A stretch of DNA of 47,988 bases, taken from IMG/VR virus record IMGVR_UViG_2579778786_000004, positions 1 to 47,988 of that record; one strand, 5' to 3'. Below, in pieces: positions 11,940-47,988 of this stretch. Every line of letters begins with the position of its first letter. Position 1 is the stretch's first letter. This DNA comes from a virus (Duplodnaviria > Heunggongvirae > Uroviricota > Caudoviricetes). The notes under the pieces were generated by a model. It worked only from the letters and a program-made list of their open reading frames with translations. It did no database searches and was not told the DNA's origin. Both the position numbers and the translations under genes were made by a program.

Positions 11940-13021
11940 TGGTTTAGTCCGGGTATTTGCTGGTAGAAAGCATAAGGCTGGACAGCGAAAGCCTCCGGGG
12001 GCATCAGATAAAGGCGCGCATGGGTGCCGTCACTGTCTCTGATATAAGTCACCTCTGCGATAAGCAATTCGGTGTCAGGCAGCTGCAGACTCGGGATGTT
12101 GACCGGGATAAGCGTATTCGGCTCCCATAATTTCCCGGATTTATCGCGCCAGGAATCAATCGTCACCGTTAACTGACGGGAACGGCCGTATCGGCGGTTC
12201 ATCTCCCAGTCAATCGCTCGCTGAGCCTGTTGTGAAGCCATCAGTGTACTTTCAACAATAATGATCCGTTTTCGGTAACGCATACTGGCCGCCTCAGGAT
12301 CGCGGGCCGTCGCCAGCGTCACCGAATCATAAGCCGTATCTGGCGAGAATCCTGCAATCGGCGAAATGCTCATCGATACGCCGACGTAATCAGAAAAGCG
12401 GTCAGCCATCGAACGGCGGTAATAAGCCTGTTCGATATTTACCCCTTCTGCGATACCGCTGGCCGCGCGCTTTGTCCCCACCCTGGTCAGAAATAAGTTA
12501 CCGTCAGGCTGATCGTAATAAAGCAATGCCGACCAGCGGGAGACACGATCAAGTATTTCCTGTGGCGATTCCCCCCAGTTCAGGGAAAATTGCGGAACTT
12601 TCACCAGATCATCAACGTCTGTACTTACACCAATGTTGTAATGGGATGCGAGGCGGGAGGCAATATCAAGCGCATTACTGTTATTGATGACGTTATTTGG
12701 CCATTCAGCAGAGCAATCAACGAGATCTGCGCACTTACTGCGGCCTGAGGCTCTGACTTCATGGCGCGAACGGGAAATAGCAGGCGACCAGTCATCAACA
12801 TACCCCGTCACCACCAGGTCGTTACCAAGCTTTACCTGACAAGGCATCCCTTCCTTTACCAGCTGCTTCTGGTCACTTCCCGGAAAATAATCCATCAGTC
12901 CCAGGTCAAAATCGGAGGGAAAACGCTCAATGCCACGGGTCACCCGCACAGAGTCCCATCCTTCAATGATTTTTCCGCCCACTATCAGGGAGACAATATC
13001 CTGATCATTATCCGTACTCAT
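11936..13021 (-). CDS. Baseplate hub / tail protein (Mu gp44 / gpP-like)
   Basis: 361 aa; follows DNA-circulation-like gene as in Mu. Confidence 0.6.
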   Translation of the reverse strand: MSTDNDQDIVSLIVGGKIIEGWDSVRVTRGIERFPSDFDLGLMDYFPGSDQKQLVKEGMPCQVKLGNDLVVTGYVDDWSPAISRSRHEVRASGRSKCADLVDCSAEWPNNVINNSNALDIASRLASHYNIGVSTDVDDLVKVPQFSLNWGESPQEILDRVSRWSALLYYDQPDGNLFLTRVGTKRAASGIAEGVNIEQAYYRRSMADRFSDYVGVSMSISPIAGFSPDTAYDSVTLATARDPEAASMRYRKRIIIVESTLMASQQAQRAIDWEMNRRYGRSRQLTVTIDSWRDKSGKLWEPNTLIPVNIPSLQLPDTELLIAEVTYIRDSDGTHARLYLMPPEAFAVQPYAFYQQIPGLNQ

Positions 13022-29298: not shown

Positions 29299-29757
29299 TT
29301 ATTTCAGGCATTGCGCCCTGATGTATTCCTGCAGGTAGTTGACCTGTGCGGTTATCTTGTCGATTCCACTTCGGAGACGGTAATAATTGAGTTCAGCATC
29401 TGCTGTAAGTCTTGGGCTTTCTCCATCGCCCATGCCGCTGGCTCCGGTCGTTGACTTTGCACAGGTGGCGGCGACTTGCAGGCGCTTACGCCCAGCAGAA
29501 ACATCAGCACGGAGACTTTCGATAGTCGCGTTAGCATCAGCAAGCTCCTTTGTGTATCTTGCGTCGAGTTCTGCTACATCACGTTGACGCTTCCGCATGT
29601 CAGCGATGGTGGCGTTCGCCTTCTCCAGTTCACTGGCCTTGTTATCGCGCTGCTCTTTGTAGGCGATTGCGTTATCACGGTAATGATTAACAGCCAATGA
29701 CAGGCAGACGATGATGCAGATAACCAGAGCTGAGATAATCGCGGTTACTCTGCTCAT
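29299..29757 (-). CDS. Rz: Spanin inner-membrane subunit Rz
   Basis: 152 aa, N-terminal TM, coiled-coil; follows endolysin as in lambda. Confidence 0.85.
29352..29543 (-). CDS. Rz1: Spanin outer-membrane lipoprotein Rz1, embedded in Rz in the +1 frame
   Basis: 63 aa with lipobox LLGVSAC and proline-rich segment, entirely inside Rz. Confidence 0.6.
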
Positions 29758-30998: not shown

Positions 30999-31517
30999 CT
31001 AAATGGATAATTGCATGTCAAGGCCTTTAACAGCAACATGCTTAACTTTCTCAACACGTTTACGCATTTTGAAAGCATTTTGCATTGGCTGGTACAAAAC
31101 AAATAACGACGCTTTCAGGATGTCGTCAATTTCGTTTCTACAGGTTGCCAGTGAAGGTTTTCTCCATCCCTCGCCACCACGTCCACACATCTTGCGTGGC
31201 TTTGCAGTCGCGTGATAGTAGGATGCAATTGCTCGCTTAGATGAACCATGAGCATAGTAGCTGAGGAGGATGCCAAAGGCTTTTTTGTCAATGTACATGA
31301 CGGAATCGACGACCTGAGAAATCAACATTCCATCATCATCATTACACATTGGCCTTGTCATAACTCTTCCCGGCTCTACGCTCTCCATGAACTTCGCTAT
31401 TACGCTGCTCATGCGCTTTTCCAGACGACCTGAATAAACCCATGCGCCCCACAGTTCAAGCCAGCCATTCAGCCACTCGTGCTGCTCTTTGGTGAGTTTT
31501 AGTTCTCTTATGCCCAT
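30999..31517 (-). CDS. Late-gene antiterminator Q-like protein
   Basis: 172 aa, Cys-containing, located between the nin region and the lysis cassette. Confidence 0.6.
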
Positions 31518-33523: not shown

Positions 33524-34047
33524 GCCGCCCTCCTGACGCCCTGCCCGATCGCCATCAATGCCGCTTTGGATACGGTAGTAAACATCCGTCGAGGACTGAT
33601 GAACGGTCGCCAAATCAGCAGCATGGAGCCTTTGCTGTTTCCCTTCTTCTCCAGCCCTGTCGATGGTTCGATAAAATTAATCCGTCCATCAGTGATAATG
33701 CGAACTTCGTCGACACTCTCCAGAGCCTTGCTGAACCATCCGACTGACATATCCTCTGGCACAAGCATAACTACCGTCTGTCGCTGTTGTATGCACTGCT
33801 CAGCGGCTTTTTCCACCCACGGCCTGATATTGCTGTACGGTGGGTTATTCCAGATTGCACCGTGGCTTACCCACTCAGAATTGAGCGCGTCGTCGGCCTC
33901 AGTTAGCCAGTGAGCACACAGAGCATTTTTGTCGCTCGCTGCCGAATCCAGCCAGAATCCAAACTCAATATCCAGTGCATCAAAAAGCCAAAGCGGCGTT
34001 TGCCAGCAGTCCTTGTCGTGCGCTGGCGTATTTGATTTGATAGTCAT
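33520..34047 (-). CDS. Phage DNA N6-adenine methyltransferase
   Basis: NPPY motif (WNNPPYS) and Dam-like N-terminus [18 protein letters not shown]; ATGA coupling to ninB and ninE. Confidence 0.8.
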
Positions 34048-34484
34048 GCAGCCCGATCTCCCCATCTCGCTTTCCACTCCAGAGCCAGTCTCGCTTCGTC
34101 TGACCACTTAACGCCACGCTCTGTACCGAATGCCTGTATAAGCTCTAATAGCTCCGCAAATTCGCCTACACGCATCCTGCTGGTTGACTGGCCTATTACC
34201 ACAAAGCCATTCCCGGCAAGGTTAGGAACAACGTCCTGCTGCTTTAATGCTGCTGTAAAAACGCACTTCCAGCTTTCTGCATCCAGCCAGCGACCATGCC
34301 ATTCAACCTGACGCGAAACGTCACCAAGGCAAGCCCAAAGCTTCCGATTTTGGTCTAAGCTGCGGTTGCGCTCCTGAATGGTTACTACGATTGGTTTTGT
34401 TGGGTCTGGAAGGATTTGCTGGATGGCTTGAATGGCGTTCTGCTGATGGATGGGGCTTCTTAGTTCAAACGTTAGTTTCCTCAT
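34044..34484 (-). CDS. ninB: NinB (Orf-family recombination mediator)
   Basis: 146 aa, near-identical to lambda NinB as recalled. Confidence 0.9.
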   Translation of the reverse strand: MRKLTFELRSPIHQQNAIQAIQQILPDPTKPIVVTIQERNRSLDQNRKLWACLGDVSRQVEWHGRWLDAESWKCVFTAALKQQDVVPNLAGNGFVVIGQSTSRMRVGEFAELLELIQAFGTERGVKWSDEARLALEWKARWGDRAA

Positions 34485-34719
34485 TGCTCACCTTCTGCAC
34501 ACATGGATTAATTAACGCCAAAATAGCTTCTGGTTTCTCAATAACATCGAACCGCTCACCACTTGCCATTCTTACAATCGTAATCCCGGCCTCAAATAGG
34601 GTTTCGATGTTGTCAGAGTTAACGTACAAGGGCTCATATGCACTTCTGGTGCTTTCTATCACGCCTGTGCTTGGTGGCTGATAGATGCTGCATTGCATGG
34701 TTAATTTTATAAATGGCAT
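34465..34719 (-). CDS. Hypothetical protein
   Basis: 84 aa ORF in the early-right operon, start overlapping upstream gene. Confidence 0.45.
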   Translation of the reverse strand: MPFIKLTMQCSIYQPPSTGVIESTRSAYEPLYVNSDNIETLFEAGITIVRMASGERFDVIEKPEAILALINPCVQKVSNEETNV

Positions 34720-34723
34720 ATAC

Positions 34724-35044
34724 TCACTCCTTCACTTTGACTCCAGCAGCGCGGATGTTTTCCTCATAAGCATCCATTGCATCACCGAAGCCATTGGAAT
34801 AATCAACAGTAAACCCTTTGGCTAATGCTTCTCTGCTGTTGATAAACTTTGGCGCGGTTATTTCAATAGCTGATCGCGATGCCTGCCACGTTTGCCAGTG
34901 GCCTTGAACATCGTCCATCACGTATTGACCACCAATATTACCGCTGCCAATTTCATGGTGATTTTCAGGGTAACGGATAAGGTCTGAAGATTCGCCTCCA
35001 CGTCGCAACCAACTTTCTTCAAACTGCCTTCTTGATTCGTCCAT
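34724..35044 (-). CDS. Hypothetical protein
   Basis: 106 aa ORF, tightly packed with neighbours. Confidence 0.45.
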   Translation of the reverse strand: MDESRRQFEESWLRRGGESSDLIRYPENHHEIGSGNIGGQYVMDDVQGHWQTWQASRSAIEITAPKFINSREALAKGFTVDYSNGFGDAMDAYEENIRAAGVKVKE

Positions 35045-35061
35045 CGGTACTTACCCTCAGT

Positions 35062-35268
35062 TCAACTCACAAAACGCCACGCCATTTTTGCTACAGCGAC
35101 AGGCATAACACCGATAATCACCCAGACAAATGCAGCGCCAAACAACGTATACCATGGGTCTTTACCGTCATTCACAAGACGAATGTAGCTATGCAGAACA
35201 ATAAAAAACGTCAGAAGAATCCATCCAACGCCAACGCATTTGAGTGCGACGAGCATAAACTCAGCCAC
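35062..35268 (-). CDS. Small two-transmembrane-segment membrane protein
   Basis: 68 aa with two hydrophobic helices separated by NDGKDPW. Confidence 0.45.
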   Translation of the reverse strand: MAEFMLVALKCVGVGWILLTFFIVLHSYIRLVNDGKDPWYTLFGAAFVWVIIGVMPVAVAKMAWRFVS

Positions 35269-35340
35269 GATTTACTCTCCCCCAAATAAAAAGGCCTGCG
35301 ATTACCAGCAGGCCTGTTATTAGCTCAGTGATGTAGATGG

Positions 35341-36717
35341 TCATACGTCAGCCCCTTGTGCATATCGTCTGCCACGCGCAGCAGGTGCATTTGATGCTGT
35401 GCAAATCTGTCTGGCTTCATCCTGGTCACATGCAACAAAGTGTCCATTACAGAACCGCTGGTAAACCGTACCAAGTGAGCCAAAACGGTTTTTCGTCACG
35501 ATGATTTCAGCAAATGGCGAGGCGCTACTGTTCTCGTCATATACCGCTTCCCGATAGAGCATGATGATTGAGTCTGCGTCCTGCTCAATGCTTCCAGAAT
35601 CACGCAAATCTGCGTTTGTCGGACGTTTGTTTGGTCGCTTCTCAACATCGCGCGAAAGCTGACTCAGGGAGATAACTGGCGTTTTCAGGTCTTTCGCCAT
35701 CGCCTTCAGGCTTCCGGAGATGTGAGCAATTGCGAGGTCGTTGCGGTCTGCTTTCGGCTTCTCAATCAGGCCAAGATAATCCGCCATGATGAGTGACAGG
35801 TTTGGATTTTCCTGTTTGTGCCGTTCTGCGATTGAGCGTATTTCTTCGACCGATAACCGCGAGGCATCGACTACCCATACATCCAAATCTGCAAGCTGAC
35901 TCATGCCGTTAGCAACGCGCGCCCAGCCTTCGTCATCCATCGATGCAGGATTTCGCAGCACGCTAACCGACATCCTCCCGGCGTTGGCAATGCTTCGCTC
36001 TGCAATCTGCAATGCGCTCATTTCCATCGAGAAAATCAACACTCCGCGCCGGACGTCAGAACCAGGAATAACTCGGCTTGCAACGCCTTCGGCAATCTTC
36101 AGCGCCAGCTCGGTTTTCCCCATACCAGGACGAGCAGCGATTATCACCAGGTCTTCTGCGTTCATCCCTCCGGTGATGGCGTCAAGTTCTTCGATTCCGG
36201 TCTTCAGGGTATCTGACTCTTCTCCGTTCCTCAGACGCCTGTCAAGCGTGTCAGTGTAGTCAGTGATGATTTCCCCTAACCGTACAGGTTTAACCTCGTC
36301 ACGGGGCTTTCTGATGGCTGAAAGACGCTTTACAAGTTCATCCATCGCCTGACTCGATGCGTCGATGGTTCCGCTCTGAATCTGTTCACGCATTTCATCC
36401 ATGATTTCCAGTACCAGACGGCGGTGATAGTTATCCGCGACCATTCCGGCATATCCCTTCAGGTTTGCGGCACTCGGGCAGTTCTTACTGGTCATCAGGA
36501 TTGACGTGAAATGCTCCTCTCCGCACGCCTCGGCAACCATCAGCGCGTCGATTAGGTTTCTGTTTCTCGCCTGCTTGCGGATAACCTCGAAGGCTTTCCG
36601 GTAGAGCGGAATTGAAAACGCTTCCGGCTCCAGCGTTGCCAGAACGTCACTGGCGGTTGGTGTTAATCCACCAATCAGCAGGCCACCGATAACGCTCGCT
36701 TCGATATCCTGTTTCAT
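35341..36717 (-). CDS. Replicative DNA helicase, DnaB family (P22 gene 12-like)
   Basis: 458 aa; Walker A ARPGMGKT, DnaB N-terminal domain. Confidence 0.85.
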
Positions 36718-37535
36718 GCAATCCCCCTGTCTGCAAACTTCCCTTCCCGTACTCCCGTTAACGAATCTTCCCTCAGCAGGTAATCAAAATCTGCCGTCCA
36801 GCCCGTGTCGTTGTCTCCGAAGTAAAACGGCTTGGCCTGATGCACAAACGCCCTGACATACGCTCTGAAACCGTCCACGTTTGGCGTTTTCAGTTGCGGG
36901 ATGATTTTCTTCAGGCGGCGTTTGCGTTTCTCGTTGACCGCAACAGCATGTGGAAGTCTGTCACCGACTTCGGTGTTGTAGGCGTTCAGGAAGGATTCGT
37001 AGTCGATTCGTTCTGCCTTGCGACGTTCAGGTTTAACCTGCCCATCGCCTCCCCCGTTAGGGGGTAAGGGGGTATTTGTATTTATTGTCTTTTGTATATT
37101 GTCTTTTGTGTTTAGCTGACTTGGCTTATACCCATTAGCCGACTTGGCTAATGTTTTATTAGCTGTTTTAGCTAATGTTAAGCTGTCCTGGCTAATCCAC
37201 TGAGAAACCACCTTGTTCACTCCGATTTTCACGCCATCAGCAATGAGGAATTTACGCTCAATAAGCTGGCGCTTGGCAGCGCAAACATGAGTGTGATGAA
37301 TACCTGTCATGGCTGCTATCTGCGTGTTTGTGAGTCGATCCATCGGCTTATTGAATCCGTATGTCTTGCGCATGATAGCGAGCATCACCTTCAACTGCCG
37401 GACGGTTAAATCAGCCATCAGCAGACTGTCGGTAATCTCGTTAGCAACGCGCATGAAACCATCTTCGGTATCTGCCACGCGATGCTCCACGACCTCCAGT
37501 TGAGGCCTGTAATCAGCTAACTTAACGACGCCCAT
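36714..37535 (-). CDS. Replication initiator protein O-like, contains the origin iterons
   Basis: 273 aa; N-terminal O-like DNA-binding region; iteron array lies inside the coding sequence. Confidence 0.8.
37073..37195. repeat. Replication origin: AT-rich tract followed by four ~17 bp iterons (TTAGCYGACTTGGCTAA-like) spaced ~23 bp
   Basis: Iteron copies at 37112-37128, 37135-37151, 37159-37175, 37178-37195; TATTGTCTTTTGT repeats upstream. Confidence 0.6.
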
Positions 37536-38115: not shown

Positions 38116-39468
<1,353 letters not shown>

Positions 39469-39673: not shown

Positions 39674-39773
39674 GCAGAAAGCTTTGAGTAGCGCGAAATG
39701 CAGCTGCAAGACAGCAACCGTGGAGATAAGCATCACGGCGCGTTACTCAAAGCTAACTGACAGGAGAATCCAG

Positions 39774-40100
39774 ATGGATGCACAAGCACGCCGCCGCGAA
39801 CGTCGCGCAGAGAAACAGGCTCAATGGAAAGCAGCAAATCCCCTGTTGGTTGGGGTAAGCGCAAAGCCAGTTAACCGCCCTATTCTCTCGCTGAATCGCA
39901 AACCGAAATCACGAGTAGAAAGCGCACTGAATCCTATAGACCTTACAGTGCTGGCTGAATACCACGAACAGATTGAAAGCAACCTGCAACGTATTGAACG
40001 CAAGAATCAGCGCACATGGTACAGCAAGCCACGCAGTGAAATGAGTGTGACTTGTGTTGGTCGCCAGAAAATGAAATTAGGCAGCAAACCACTTATTTGA
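39774..40100 (+). CDS. N: Antitermination protein N (lambda type)
   Basis: 108 aa from MDAQARRRERRAEKQAQWKAANPLLVG, near-identical to lambda N N-terminal arginine-rich motif. Confidence 0.9.
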   Translation: MDAQARRRERRAEKQAQWKAANPLLVGVSAKPVNRPILSLNRKPKSRVESALNPIDLTVLAEYHEQIESNLQRIERKNQRTWYSKPRSEMSVTCVGRQKMKLGSKPLI

Positions 40101-40111
40101 GAGGAATTAAT

Positions 40112-40735
40112 ATGTCATCAATCCGCTTAACTACGAGAATGAAAGAGGAAATCGCTCGTAACGCTTTAATTAAGTCTGGGGTTTTCACTGAACTTAAAGA
40201 AGTAACAAAGTTAAAGAACCAGCTTGCACTTGACGCCAGAGTTATTGCGTTTGGCGGTAAAAAGAAAACTGAGGAAGTGGATCAGTTATCATCCAGGTTA
40301 GTAGCTATAAGTGAAGAACTTGAAAAGATGGGATGTTCATTTTACTCATACGATGTTCGTTCTACTTCAATTTATCTGACTGTATCTGGCAGAAGGGTTG
40401 GATGGCATTCATATGGGAAAGACGGCAACGGCGAAGATATATTGCTCCCTACTCCGACCAAAGATAAATGCATGTTTAGCGCAGAACACGAAATAACAAA
40501 AAGGTTTGATGAAATCTGCGCATTGCAACAAAAACTTGAAGCCAAGAAAAAGGATATCGAATCAAATGTATGGGCTGCTTTGAACTCAGTCACAACAGTT
40601 AAGCGACTTATTGAAGTTTGGCCTGAAAGCAAAGAATTGCTACCAGAAGAAGCAGATAAAGCAAGTACAGCACTTCCTGCTTTACGGGTAGAAGATTTGA
40701 ATAAGATGATTGGACTTCCTTCCGAGGCCGCATAG
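40112..40735 (+). CDS. Hypothetical protein, first gene after N in the PL operon
   Basis: 207 aa from MSSIRLTT (RBS GAGAGGAA), soluble, coiled-coil segments. Confidence 0.55.
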   Translation: MSSIRLTTRMKEEIARNALIKSGVFTELKEVTKLKNQLALDARVIAFGGKKKTEEVDQLSSRLVAISEELEKMGCSFYSYDVRSTSIYLTVSGRRVGWHSYGKDGNGEDILLPTPTKDKCMFSAEHEITKRFDEICALQQKLEAKKKDIESNVWAALNSVTTVKRLIEVWPESKELLPEEADKASTALPALRVEDLNKMIGLPSEAA

Positions 40736-46740: not shown

Positions 46741-47988
46741 CTATATTGCTGAAGGTACAGGCGTTTCCATAACTATTTGCTCGCGTTTTTTACTCAAGAA
46801 GAAAATGCCAAATAGCAACATCAGGCAGACAATACCCGAAATTGCGAAGAAAACTGTCTGGTAGCCTGCGTGGTCAAAGAGTATCCCAGTCGGCGTTGAA
46901 AGCAGCACAATCCCAAGCGAACTGGCAATTTGAAAACCAATCAGAAAGATCGTCGACGACAGGCGCTTATCAAAGTTTGCCACGCTGTATTTGAAGACGG
47001 ATATGACACAAAGTGGAACCTCAATGGCATGTAACAACTTCACTAATGAAATAATCCAGGGGTTAACGAACAGCGCGCAGGAAAGGATACGCAACGCCAT
47101 AATCACAACTCCGATAAGTAATGCATTTTTTGGCCCTACCCGATTCACAAAGAAAGGAATAATCGCCATGCACAGCGCTTCGAGTACCACCTGGAATGAG
47201 TTGAGATAACCATACAGGCGCGTTCCTACATCGTGTGATTCGAATAAACCTGCATAAAAGACAGGAAAAAGTTGTTGATCAAAAATGTTATAGAAAGACC
47301 ACGTCCCCACAATAAATATGACAAAAACCCAGAAGTTTCGATCCTTGAAAACTGCGATAAAATCCTCTTTTTTTACCCCTCCCGCATCTGCCGCTACGCA
47401 CTGGTGATCCTTATCTTTAAAACGCATGTTGATCATCATAAATACAGCGCCAAATAGCGAGACCAACCAGAAGTTGATATGGGGACTGATACTAAAAAAT
47501 ATGCCGGCAAAGAACGCGCCAATAGCATAGCCAAAAGATCCCCAGGCGCGCGCTGTTCCATATTCGAAATGAAAATTTCGCGCCATTTTTTCGGTGAAGC
47601 TATCAAGCAAACCGCATCCCGCCAGATACCCCAAGCCAAAAAATAGCGCCCCCAGAATTAGACCTACAGAAAAATTGCTTTGCAGTAACGGTTCATAAAC
47701 GTAAATCATAAACGGTCCGGTCAAGACCAGGATGAAACTCATACACCAGATGAGCGGTTTCTTCAGACCGAGTTTATCCTGAACGATGCCGTAGAACATC
47801 ATAAATAGAATGCTGGTAAACTGGTTGACCGAATAAAGTGTACCTAATTCCGTCCCTGTCAACCCTAGATGTCCTTTCAGCCAAATAGCGTATAACGACC
47901 ACCACAGCGACCAGGAAATAAAAAAGAGAAATGAGTAACTGGATGCAAAACGATAGTACGCATTTCTGAATGGAATATTCAGTGCCAT
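46741..47988 (-). CDS. cscB: MFS oligosaccharide:H+ symporter of the LacY family (sucrose permease CscB-like); host gene right of the prophage
   Basis: 415 aa, 12 TM segments, LacY-family motifs; N-terminus MALNIPFRNAYYRFASSYSF as recalled for CscB; start codon at window edge. Confidence 0.7.
   Translation of the reverse strand: MALNIPFRNAYYRFASSYSFLFFISWSLWWSLYAIWLKGHLGLTGTELGTLYSVNQFTSILFMMFYGIVQDKLGLKKPLIWCMSFILVLTGPFMIYVYEPLLQSNFSVGLILGALFFGLGYLAGCGLLDSFTEKMARNFHFEYGTARAWGSFGYAIGAFFAGIFFSISPHINFWLVSLFGAVFMMINMRFKDKDHQCVAADAGGVKKEDFIAVFKDRNFWVFVIFIVGTWSFYNIFDQQLFPVFYAGLFESHDVGTRLYGYLNSFQVVLEALCMAIIPFFVNRVGPKNALLIGVVIMALRILSCALFVNPWIISLVKLLHAIEVPLCVISVFKYSVANFDKRLSSTIFLIGFQIASSLGIVLLSTPTGILFDHAGYQTVFFAISGIVCLMLLFGIFFLSKKREQIVMETPVPSAI

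Follow-up and report, generated by a model that had tools for sequence, protein, structure and literature searches.

Three small genes between the helicase gene and ninB of a lambdoid prophage probably form an ordinary mosaic cassette of the nin region

What occupies the interval between the replicative helicase gene and ninB in a lambdoid prophage, and do the genes found there act together? This question is raised by a stretch of Caudoviricetes DNA of 47,988 nucleotides (nt) from IMG/VR (record IMGVR_UViG_2579778786_000004), which was analyzed as a whole and is called the window here. Three small genes, orf68, orf106 and orf84, named after the length of their products in amino acids (aa) and together referred to as the trio, lie in this interval on the minus strand. 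An earlier reading of the sequence, the original prediction, had placed them at the position of lambda ren and considered orf68 a possible membrane toxin or exclusion protein. We propose that the interval is probably an ordinary mosaic cassette of nin-region accessory genes, which recombination would have placed at the conserved tR2/ninB junction. The features on which this proposal is based are the following (ORF, open reading frame).

35341-36717, minus strand: DnaB-type replicative helicase, upstream neighbor of the trio and end of the replication module (Pfam DnaB_C, E = 7e-78; DnaB, E = 4e-13; phrog_19)
35261-35344, minus strand: ninA micro-ORF, 27 aa, hydrophobic, coding status doubtful; its ATG overlaps the helicase stop codon and it contains the tR2 hairpin
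35282-35315, minus strand: tR2 intrinsic terminator, 8-bp stem with 6 G-C pairs, 8-nt loop, then TTTTTATTT
35062-35268, minus strand: orf68, 68 aa, GTG start
34724-35044, minus strand: orf106, 106 aa
34465-34719, minus strand: orf84, 84 aa
34044-34484, minus strand: NinB/orf recombination mediator, downstream neighbor of the trio (Pfam NinB, E = 4e-54)

A terminator scan and folding located the tR2 hairpin at 35292-35315 (AGGCCTGC-loop-GCAGGCCT, followed by TTTTTATTT). In an alignment, the 96 bases after the helicase stop codon correspond almost base for base to the lambda ren-ninB intergenic segment and to the tR2 annotated in Sf6 and HK620; tR2 is also annotated in Lahn2. Because the segment in the window is near-identical to the lambda tR2 segment, the trio is located past tR2, towards ninB. 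Lambda has the order P, ren, tR2, ninB, with an empty interval between tR2 and ninB. The window keeps the lambda ninB ribosome-binding site GGGGGAGAG, which is used here by the GTG start of orf68. The ren slot has no occupant, since the helicase stop codon overlaps the ATG of ninA and tR2 follows directly. The same micro-ORF is annotated as gene 45/ninA in Sf6, HK620 and Lahn2 (26-27 aa, over tR2). Using lambda Ren and two Ren-like proteins as tblastn queries, we found no Ren homolog in the whole window (nothing below E = 0.02), and no member of the trio matches phrog_142 (Ren). By alignment, the trio thus appears as an insertion at the tR2/ninB joint, outside the ren slot. The assignment to the lambda ren position, made when the tR2 hairpin and the ninA micro-ORF had been overlooked, had to be given up: the genes lie downstream of tR2, the ren slot behind the replication gene and ahead of tR2 is unoccupied, and Ren is absent from the window. 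Another candidate terminator, located within orf68 (35207-35232, 3 G-C pairs), was dropped, as three such sites were counted where 1.8 were expected.

Each gene of the trio is preceded by a Shine-Dalgarno sequence at a distance of 5-9 nt (GGGGGAGAG for orf68, GAGGG for orf106, AAGGAG for orf84), and each product matches a PHROG family end to end (orf68 phrog_1165, E = 1.6e-39; orf106 phrog_343, E = 4.7e-29; orf84 phrog_8458, E = 5e-40). Together with the coordinates, these data bear out the earlier call of three small genes of 68, 106 and 84 aa between the helicase gene and ninB. The 3' end of orf84 overlaps the start of ninB by 20 nt, and translational coupling of the two genes is likely. Where divergence exists (against the HK022, Sf6 and HK620 copies), the pairwise ratio of nonsynonymous to synonymous divergence (dN/dS) was 0.30-0.40, with the exception of the strongly diverged Sf6 orf106 allele (0.72); from these ratios, selection on the trio looks purifying. 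By source name, homologs come from Escherichia, Salmonella, Cronobacter, Citrobacter and Enterobacter as well as from Klebsiella and Pectobacterium phages. The statement that the genes have no recognizable function stood in so far as they are functionally uncharacterized, and no function was obtained for orf68 or orf106 from any family library searched (Pfam, PHROG, NCBIfam, PADLOC). It did not stand entirely, as orf84 passes the Pfam cut-off for FlbD and RefSeq names orf106 a phiTE_015 family protein. The nin region of lambdoid phages has been described as a diverse pool of 30-50 interchangeable genes (PMC5630979), which agrees with the variable region of lambdoid genomes named in the original prediction.

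The arrangement has been recorded before. In phage HK022 (AF069308), genes 58, 59, 60 and 61 (ninB) have the same order as orf68, orf106, orf84 and ninB, also on the ninB side of tR2. HK022 gp60 and orf84 have the same sequence (100% identity), and gp59 has 73% identity with orf106, the N-terminal 62 residues being nearly identical, whereas gp58 is a different allele of orf68 (57% identity) and HK022 has the additional genes 56 and 57 in the interval from the helicase gene to gene 58. Sf6 encodes a phiTE_015-like gp48 and a gp49 with 92% identity to orf84; in place of orf68, which it lacks, it carries genes 46 and 47. HK022 genes 58-60 and Sf6 genes 48-49 are annotated merely as hypothetical. 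In HK620 (NC_002730), an intact orf68 homolog of 97% identity lies directly between tR2 and ninB (locus 2501-2707, corresponding to 12378-12584 of the record) and is unannotated in the reference record. A megablast search with a 941-bp segment detected some part of it in 2,009 of 5,426 complete E. coli genomes and at least 80% of it in 6. In the best E. coli match, RefSeq names the genes hypothetical protein, phiTE_015 family protein, flagellar FlbD family protein and NinB. Judged by these matches, the trio would be ordinary, catalogued accessory genes of the nin pool and not new.

Nor do the three genes appear to form a fixed three-part system. Among 73 window-type orf68 loci from IMG/VR, a phiTE_015-family gene is located between orf68 and ninB in 62 (alleles of 87-146 aa), orf68 leads straight to ninB in 11, and an FlbD-like gene is present in 4. 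Two divergent orf68 alleles in nine further contexts are followed by a PF26207 gene in all nine cases, behind DnaB-type or primase-type replication genes. The window-type orf84 loci have the order phiTE_015-family gene, orf84, ninB in 18 of 18 cases, and orf68 is also present in 11 of these. The unity of the trio implied by the original prediction is not compatible with these counts, and gene order points to independent assortment. Mosaic joints were also visible within genes: in orf68, two alleles that are otherwise 57% identical (window and HK022) have the same DNA sequence in their last 20 codons, and in orf106, the first 62 residues and the last 10 are common to HK022 gp59, whereas the stretch between them differs.

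Three further features of the prophage are the following.

39684-40100, plus strand: N-like antiterminator of the same prophage (phrog_271, E = 5e-26)
36714-37535, minus strand: O-like initiator
30999-31517, minus strand: Q

Read on the minus strand from high to low coordinates, the early region runs from the N-like/cI immunity region through cro, cII, the O-like initiator, the helicase gene and a short spacer to the trio; below it follow, all on the minus strand, NinB, a Dam-type methylase, small nin ORFs, NinG, a NinI-like phosphatase and Q. The trio is thereby located as nin genes are, in the interval from tR2 to Q, on the strand of the pR operon and in chained or overlapping ORFs. Much of this early region is shared with Sf6 and the HK phages. 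A scan of 33900-35600 found no sigma-70-like promoter, where 1.8 were expected. In lambda, the nin genes depend on N, are expressed in the delayed-early phase and are not required for plaque formation (PMC10695390). By analogy, transcription through tR2 into the trio presumably requires the N-like protein. With tR2 upstream, no promoter-like site and an N-like gene in the window, we infer that expression of the trio should be N-dependent and delayed-early and should not occur from the prophage. Transcription from pR would reach the cassette only after N-type antitermination through tR2, and the three products would be made during lytic growth, together with the replication and recombination proteins, and not in the lysogen.

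For orf84, a relationship to the FlbD/SwrD family was found. With 25.5 bits, the protein exceeds the gathering threshold of Pfam FlbD (PF06289), which is 24.7 bits (E = 9.7e-6; residues 21-76 aligned to profile positions 2-57). The profile is also matched by all six further relatives scanned (E = 2e-8 to 3e-4), in five of them without gaps and again at an offset of 19-20 residues. The AlphaFold2 model of orf84 (predicted local distance difference test, pLDDT, 83) contains strands at residues 3-14 and 23-34, a turn at 35-37, strands at 38-43, 47-51 and 56-59, and a helix at 63-70. This predicted fold matches the order of elements in SwrD (beta-beta-3_10-beta-beta-beta-alpha). Crystal structures of SwrD, a swarming factor, from B. 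subtilis and B. burgdorferi are hexameric rings that resemble RemA, ComK and LytTR (preprint PMC13232269), and the model suggests that orf84 is probably a ring oligomer, too. The pore/interface motif of SwrD, Asn15-xxx-Ile/Leu19-Glu20, is kept in orf84 as N34, I38 and E39, in a mapping that uses the ungapped Pfam offset of 19 and assumes that profile positions equal SwrD residue numbers. I38 is invariant in alignment A1, and E39 and N34 are invariant in its closer subset A6. Unlike in SwrD, the surface loop Pro26-Asp27-Thr28 is G45-I46-T47 in orf84 and Glu23 is F42; the phage clade of orf84 conserves the Gly and mostly the Thr of this loop. Hence the ring, if formed, would be built through the Asn-xxx-Ile-Glu motif and would lack the Pro-Asp-Thr loop of SwrD.

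The genomic surroundings of this family are those of phages. In every locus examined, the FlbD-like gene belongs to a phage early operon, located between replication genes and ninB, and never to a fla/che operon. A Foldseek search of BFVD returned many phage proteins named 'flagellar and swarming motility' (probability 1.0, TM score 0.5-0.7), including gp27 of N4 and proteins of phages whose names point to Gordonia, Mycobacterium and Enterococcus as hosts, and relatives at the sequence level occur in Shigella, Klebsiella and Pectobacterium phages. For these phage proteins, the label 'flagellar' is almost certainly a misnomer. An exhaustive phmmer search yielded only 14 cluster representatives, so the orf84 family is small. 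orf84 is a soluble, acidic protein (isoelectric point, pI, 4.5), and the family members are acidic as well (pI 4.3-5.3 in 14 of 16). Searches of PDB chain sequences with orf84 and orf106 gave matches at chance level only (tissue factor, E = 0.44; Mpf2Ba1, E = 0.17) or none. In one FlbD-like relative (P0189, 120 aa; L010-L012, 5001-5363), the C-terminal tail ...MRNKCNLAIRAAGITV resembles the C-terminus of orf106 (...AMDAYEENIRAAGVKV) and the C-terminal IRAAG-x-V of the phiTE_015 family; its gene is preceded by a NinX-like gene and directly followed by ninB or DUF1367. phiTE_015 genes occur near FlbD-like genes in still other arrangements.

Elsewhere, relatives of orf84 are associated with Ren-like proteins. 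P0198, encoded directly after a DnaB helicase gene, is a fusion of one part that matches phrog_142, 'Ren-like exclusion protein' (residues 2-79, E = 3e-11), with another that matches phrog_8458 (residues 78-129, E = 3e-19). In Klebsiella phage RAH1, the FlbD-like gene follows an ORF for a winged-helix protein of 100 aa with 30% identity to lambda Ren over 50 residues (E = 5e-8). Across 80 IMG/VR loci of a sister clade of orf84, a Ren-like ORF is found directly upstream in 72 and fused in 2 (74/80 in total), and when the loci were clustered at 70% identity and a stricter adjacency rule was applied, at least 8 of the 11 clusters had the association. These pairs sit behind lambda-P-type or DnaB-type replication genes and are usually followed by a phrog_492 protein (163-171 aa). 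Loci with the module are L108-L187 (IMG/VR), L006 (2702-3713), L026 (2699-3776) and L009 (2416-2868); one depositor had named the FlbD-like ORF itself 'exclusion protein ren'. In a 2021 preprint (10.1101/2021.04.19.439022), Ren is considered a likely participant in replication, and an interaction of Rex proteins with Ren is reported from two-hybrid assays. For the trio, no functional lead other than this indirect association with Ren emerged. The 'ren' hunch of the original prediction finds an equally indirect echo here, as the orf84 family is the usual neighbor or fusion partner of Ren-like proteins elsewhere.

The two hydrophobic helices that had been predicted for the 68-aa product were confirmed by Kyte-Doolittle means over 19 residues, which peak at 2.35 (residues 6-24) and 2.38 (residues 42-60). 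The polar loop RLVNDGKDPWY separates the two transmembrane (TM) segments.

35197-35253, minus strand: TM1 of orf68, about residues 6-24
35089-35145, minus strand: TM2 of orf68, about residues 42-60

The protein is basic (pI 9.0). K61 and R65 at the C-terminus suggest, by the positive-inside rule, that both termini are cytoplasmic and the short loop is periplasmic; orf68 would then insert into the inner membrane as a helical hairpin, usually travelling with a phiTE_015-family gene. Its homologs form 61 clusters, from Escherichia and Salmonella where the source is named; relatives were present in 107 phage records, and one variant was found in 137 blocks of the sequence collection. Conserved in the alignment are A8, W16, T20, F21, L31-V32-x2-G35-K36-D37, W49, I52-G53 and P56 through F66, and of these W16, T20, F21, W49, G53 and P56 are invariant across the alleles. 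Conservation of TM2 and the tail was considered as a sign of selection by a partner and dismissed, since the DNA-identical last 20 codons of the E. coli alleles are a recombination joint. Matches of orf68 in Pfam and NCBIfam to a type IV secretion system pilin (14.9 bits, cut-off 26.6) and to the antiporter subunit MnhG (15.3 bits, cut-off 122) were discarded as matches of hydrophobic composition. The name 'NinA', which appears among the feature names under BLAST matches of orf68, was not adopted either, because ninA in HK620, Sf6 and Lahn2 is the micro-ORF of 26-27 aa over tR2. In a Salmonella variant (P0016, 93 aa), the ninA frame continues into the orf68 homolog, and the result is a predicted three-helix protein.

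orf106 is an acidic (pI 5.0), soluble protein. Its homologs form 143 clusters, including ones from Cronobacter, Citrobacter and Enterobacter. Precomputed PF26207 matches exist for 119 of the 120 listed homologs, among them proteins of 93-97% identity; the membership of orf106 in this family is taken from these close homologs, as the local Pfam scan was run without that model. RefSeq names the 106-aa gene at the same position in a 99% DNA-identical E. coli locus 'phiTE_015 family protein'. Motifs conserved in the family are SRKQFE-W, W-x2-W-x-ASRAAIE and the C-terminal IRAAG-x-KVKE. The AlphaFold2 model of orf106 is mostly helical and of low confidence (pLDDT 63.5), and a fold search of the PDB with it returned nothing below E = 2. 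Some members of the family (homologs P0084, P0165 and P0072) carry N-terminal extensions, which look like fusions with small upstream genes; one extension has a CxxC...CxC motif resembling a zinc ribbon (MSKCQKCNNTGMCDSGG...ECDC).

Within a mosaic cassette, the single genes could still have roles of their own. Tentatively, we suggest that orf84 is a small acidic oligomeric hub without flagellar function that binds phage proteins associated with replication or recombination. Its partners would be Ren-type winged-helix proteins where these are present, and NinB or the phiTE_015 protein here. For orf68 together with orf106, a dispensable membrane function in the lytic phase is conceivable but doubtful; the two proteins might block secondary infection or shield the infected cell from membrane-acting abortive-infection systems. 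A speculative extension, which we regard as rather unlikely, is that the phage branch of SwrD/FlbD as a whole consists of ring-shaped hubs for replication-associated proteins, mostly with Ren and re-wired to NinB or the phiTE_015 protein in Ren-less phages. The ring would then, for example, display several Ren domains, which would bind replicating DNA or neutralize Rex-type abortive infection.

Several points weigh against these proposals. The match of orf84 to Pfam FlbD exceeds the threshold by less than 1 bit. A Foldseek search of the PDB with the monomer model gave E = 0.16 at best (PH-like domains) and no match to RemA or SwrD, although a monomer with a long hairpin may not superpose on ring subunits; a profile of the orf84 family likewise found no match among PDB sequences. 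Identity between orf84 and the sister clade amounts to only 30-45%, Ren is not encoded in the window, and the Ren association may not transfer to orf84. As the window-type orf84 copies are at least 92% identical, they may represent one inherited DNA block. The pairing of orf68 with phiTE_015 genes is suggestive of co-function, but shared recombination joints would explain it equally well. The promoter scan covered sigma-70 consensus sites only. A literature search under the family identifiers gave nothing relevant, and no experiments on the three proteins were found.

Other explanations were compared with the mosaic cassette. In a reading that follows the original prediction, orf68 would serve as a small membrane toxin or in superinfection exclusion, and the trio would defend the lysogen against other phages; we consider this unlikely. 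A role in exclusion is known for some small membrane proteins of phages, such as T4 Imm and HK97 gp15, and orf68 combines small size and a basic character with two strong transmembrane segments, whose core is kept across the alleles. However, positive evidence was obtained neither from PADLOC (no match for the trio at E up to 1) nor from annotated relatives in Pfam, PHROG or NCBIfam. Located directly behind tR2, orf68 should be silent in the prophage: with no promoter-like site in 33900-35600, the prophage expression needed for classical superinfection exclusion is unlikely. Independent assortment of the three genes also speaks against this reading, as does, with regard to strong toxicity, the apparently wide distribution of intact orf68, although repression would account for it as well. 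A lytic-phase role of the T4 Imm type is possible. Another reading makes orf68 a holin- or antiholin-like membrane hairpin that tunes the timing of lysis. Class II holins such as S21 have the size and two-TM layout of orf68, and its presumed expression in lytic growth would fit, but orf68 belongs to the early operon, far from the lysis cassette downstream of Q (Rz at 29299-29757), and has no holin match in Pfam or PHROG, while a related locus has separate holin genes beside its orf68 homolog, all of which makes this role improbable. It is very improbable that the trio is evolutionary filler, that is, functionless remnants of mosaic recombination kept between conserved joints. The dispensability of nin genes in the laboratory (PMC5630979, PMC10695390), the intragenic joints and DNA-identical segments between alleles, the 11 of 73 orf68 loci without a phiTE_015 gene and the majority without orf84 are in line with filler; frames that are intact and carry Shine-Dalgarno sequences in every locus examined, a dN/dS of 0.3-0.4, and homologs kept at 30-60% identity across several enterobacterial genera and non-lambdoid phages (including those of Yersinia, Hafnia and Pseudomonas) are not.

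Two rival readings concern orf84 alone. Its family match and the flagellar names in PHROG and RefSeq could be taken literally, so that orf84 would act as a true FlbD/SwrD protein on the MotAB stators of the host motor and alter the motility of infected cells. We regard this as extremely improbable. Shigella, Klebsiella, Mycobacterium, Gordonia and Enterococcus are typically non-flagellated, and the family or its fold relatives occur in phages of, or named for, these genera; the Pro-Asp-Thr motif proposed as the partner-binding site of SwrD is Gly-Ile-Thr in orf84, and the family is found in a replication/recombination context, never a flagellar one. SwrD is genetically linked to stator power in Bacillus, but is absent from Escherichia according to Pfam taxonomy, and even for SwrD attempts to confirm the predicted interaction with MotA biochemically did not succeed (PMC13232269). 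A ring that binds nucleic acid like RemA, either organizing phage DNA at replication or recombination intermediates or acting as a transcription factor, is also improbable. It would suit the resemblance of the SwrD fold and ring to the DNA-binding RemA, ComK and LytTR (PMC13232269), the fusion or adjacency of the family to winged-helix Ren-like proteins, and the location of orf84 between replication genes and ninB. The acidity of the family speaks against DNA binding of the RemA kind, and the fusion to a winged helix-turn-helix suggests that the ring obtains DNA binding from another domain. SwrD lacks the Arg-bearing helical insertion of RemA (PMC13232269), the orf84 model has no insertion between strands 3 and 4, and the Foldseek search of the PDB returned no RemA.

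If the mosaic cassette is preferred, what is gained is mainly a corrected map, with tR2 and ninA present, the ren slot empty and the trio past the terminator, and a trio that is not taken for a functional unit. For the window itself, the significance is very little. The 'flagellar' names of the phage genes in RefSeq and PHROG are very probably misleading, and the module of Ren-like, FlbD-like and phrog_492 genes (74/80 loci) offers a handle on the function of lambda Ren and on the mechanism of SwrD. Should the hub proposal be true for the phage branch, the label 'flagellar' would be too narrow for the whole Pfam family, and SwrD might act through nucleic-acid or regulatory complexes and not through the motor.

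The whole window represents a prophage with chromosomal transporter genes on both outer flanks, which is probably inserted at a tRNA-Arg gene.

Within 1-2405, one flank: formate/nitrite-transporter-family gene
1009-1083: tRNA-Arg(CCT)
1209-2405: tyrosine integrase
46741-47988, other flank: LacY-type sugar symporter

Some further genes of this prophage were recorded. The segment 30780-30935 on the minus strand, just downstream of Q and before the lysis genes, carries genes for tRNA-Thr(TGT) and tRNA-Asn(GTT). A 227-aa protein encoded just after the N-like gene in the leftward early operon (40052-40735, plus strand) strongly matches Nmad5 (nucleotide modification associated domain 5, E = 9e-72). 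An ORF of 158 aa (38992-39468, plus strand; phrog_2651, no Pfam match) and the cI-like repressor gene overlap at the end of the latter, the site at which lambda has rexA/rexB and P22 has prophage-expressed genes of the sieB type.

Compared with known systems, the members of the trio show partial likeness to several. The phiTE_015 family (PF26207, phrog_343) is distantly like EaD of P22, and among its members orf106 is a particular mosaic allele. orf68 resembles T4 Imm, HK97 gp15 and class II holins in size and in having one or two TM helices, but shows no sequence similarity to them in any library searched, and its position and likely timing differ. As with lambda Ren, the trio would, by analogy, consist of dispensable delayed-early genes between the replication genes and ninB; unlike Ren, a winged-helix protein encoded upstream of tR2, the three proteins are non-homologous to it and encoded downstream of the terminator. 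With SwrD, orf84 has in common its small size and a poorly predicted C-terminal tail. It differs from SwrD in a longer first beta hairpin, with about 19 extra N-terminal residues, and in its location in a phage early operon instead of a flagellar one, in phages whose hosts include bacteria without SwrD.

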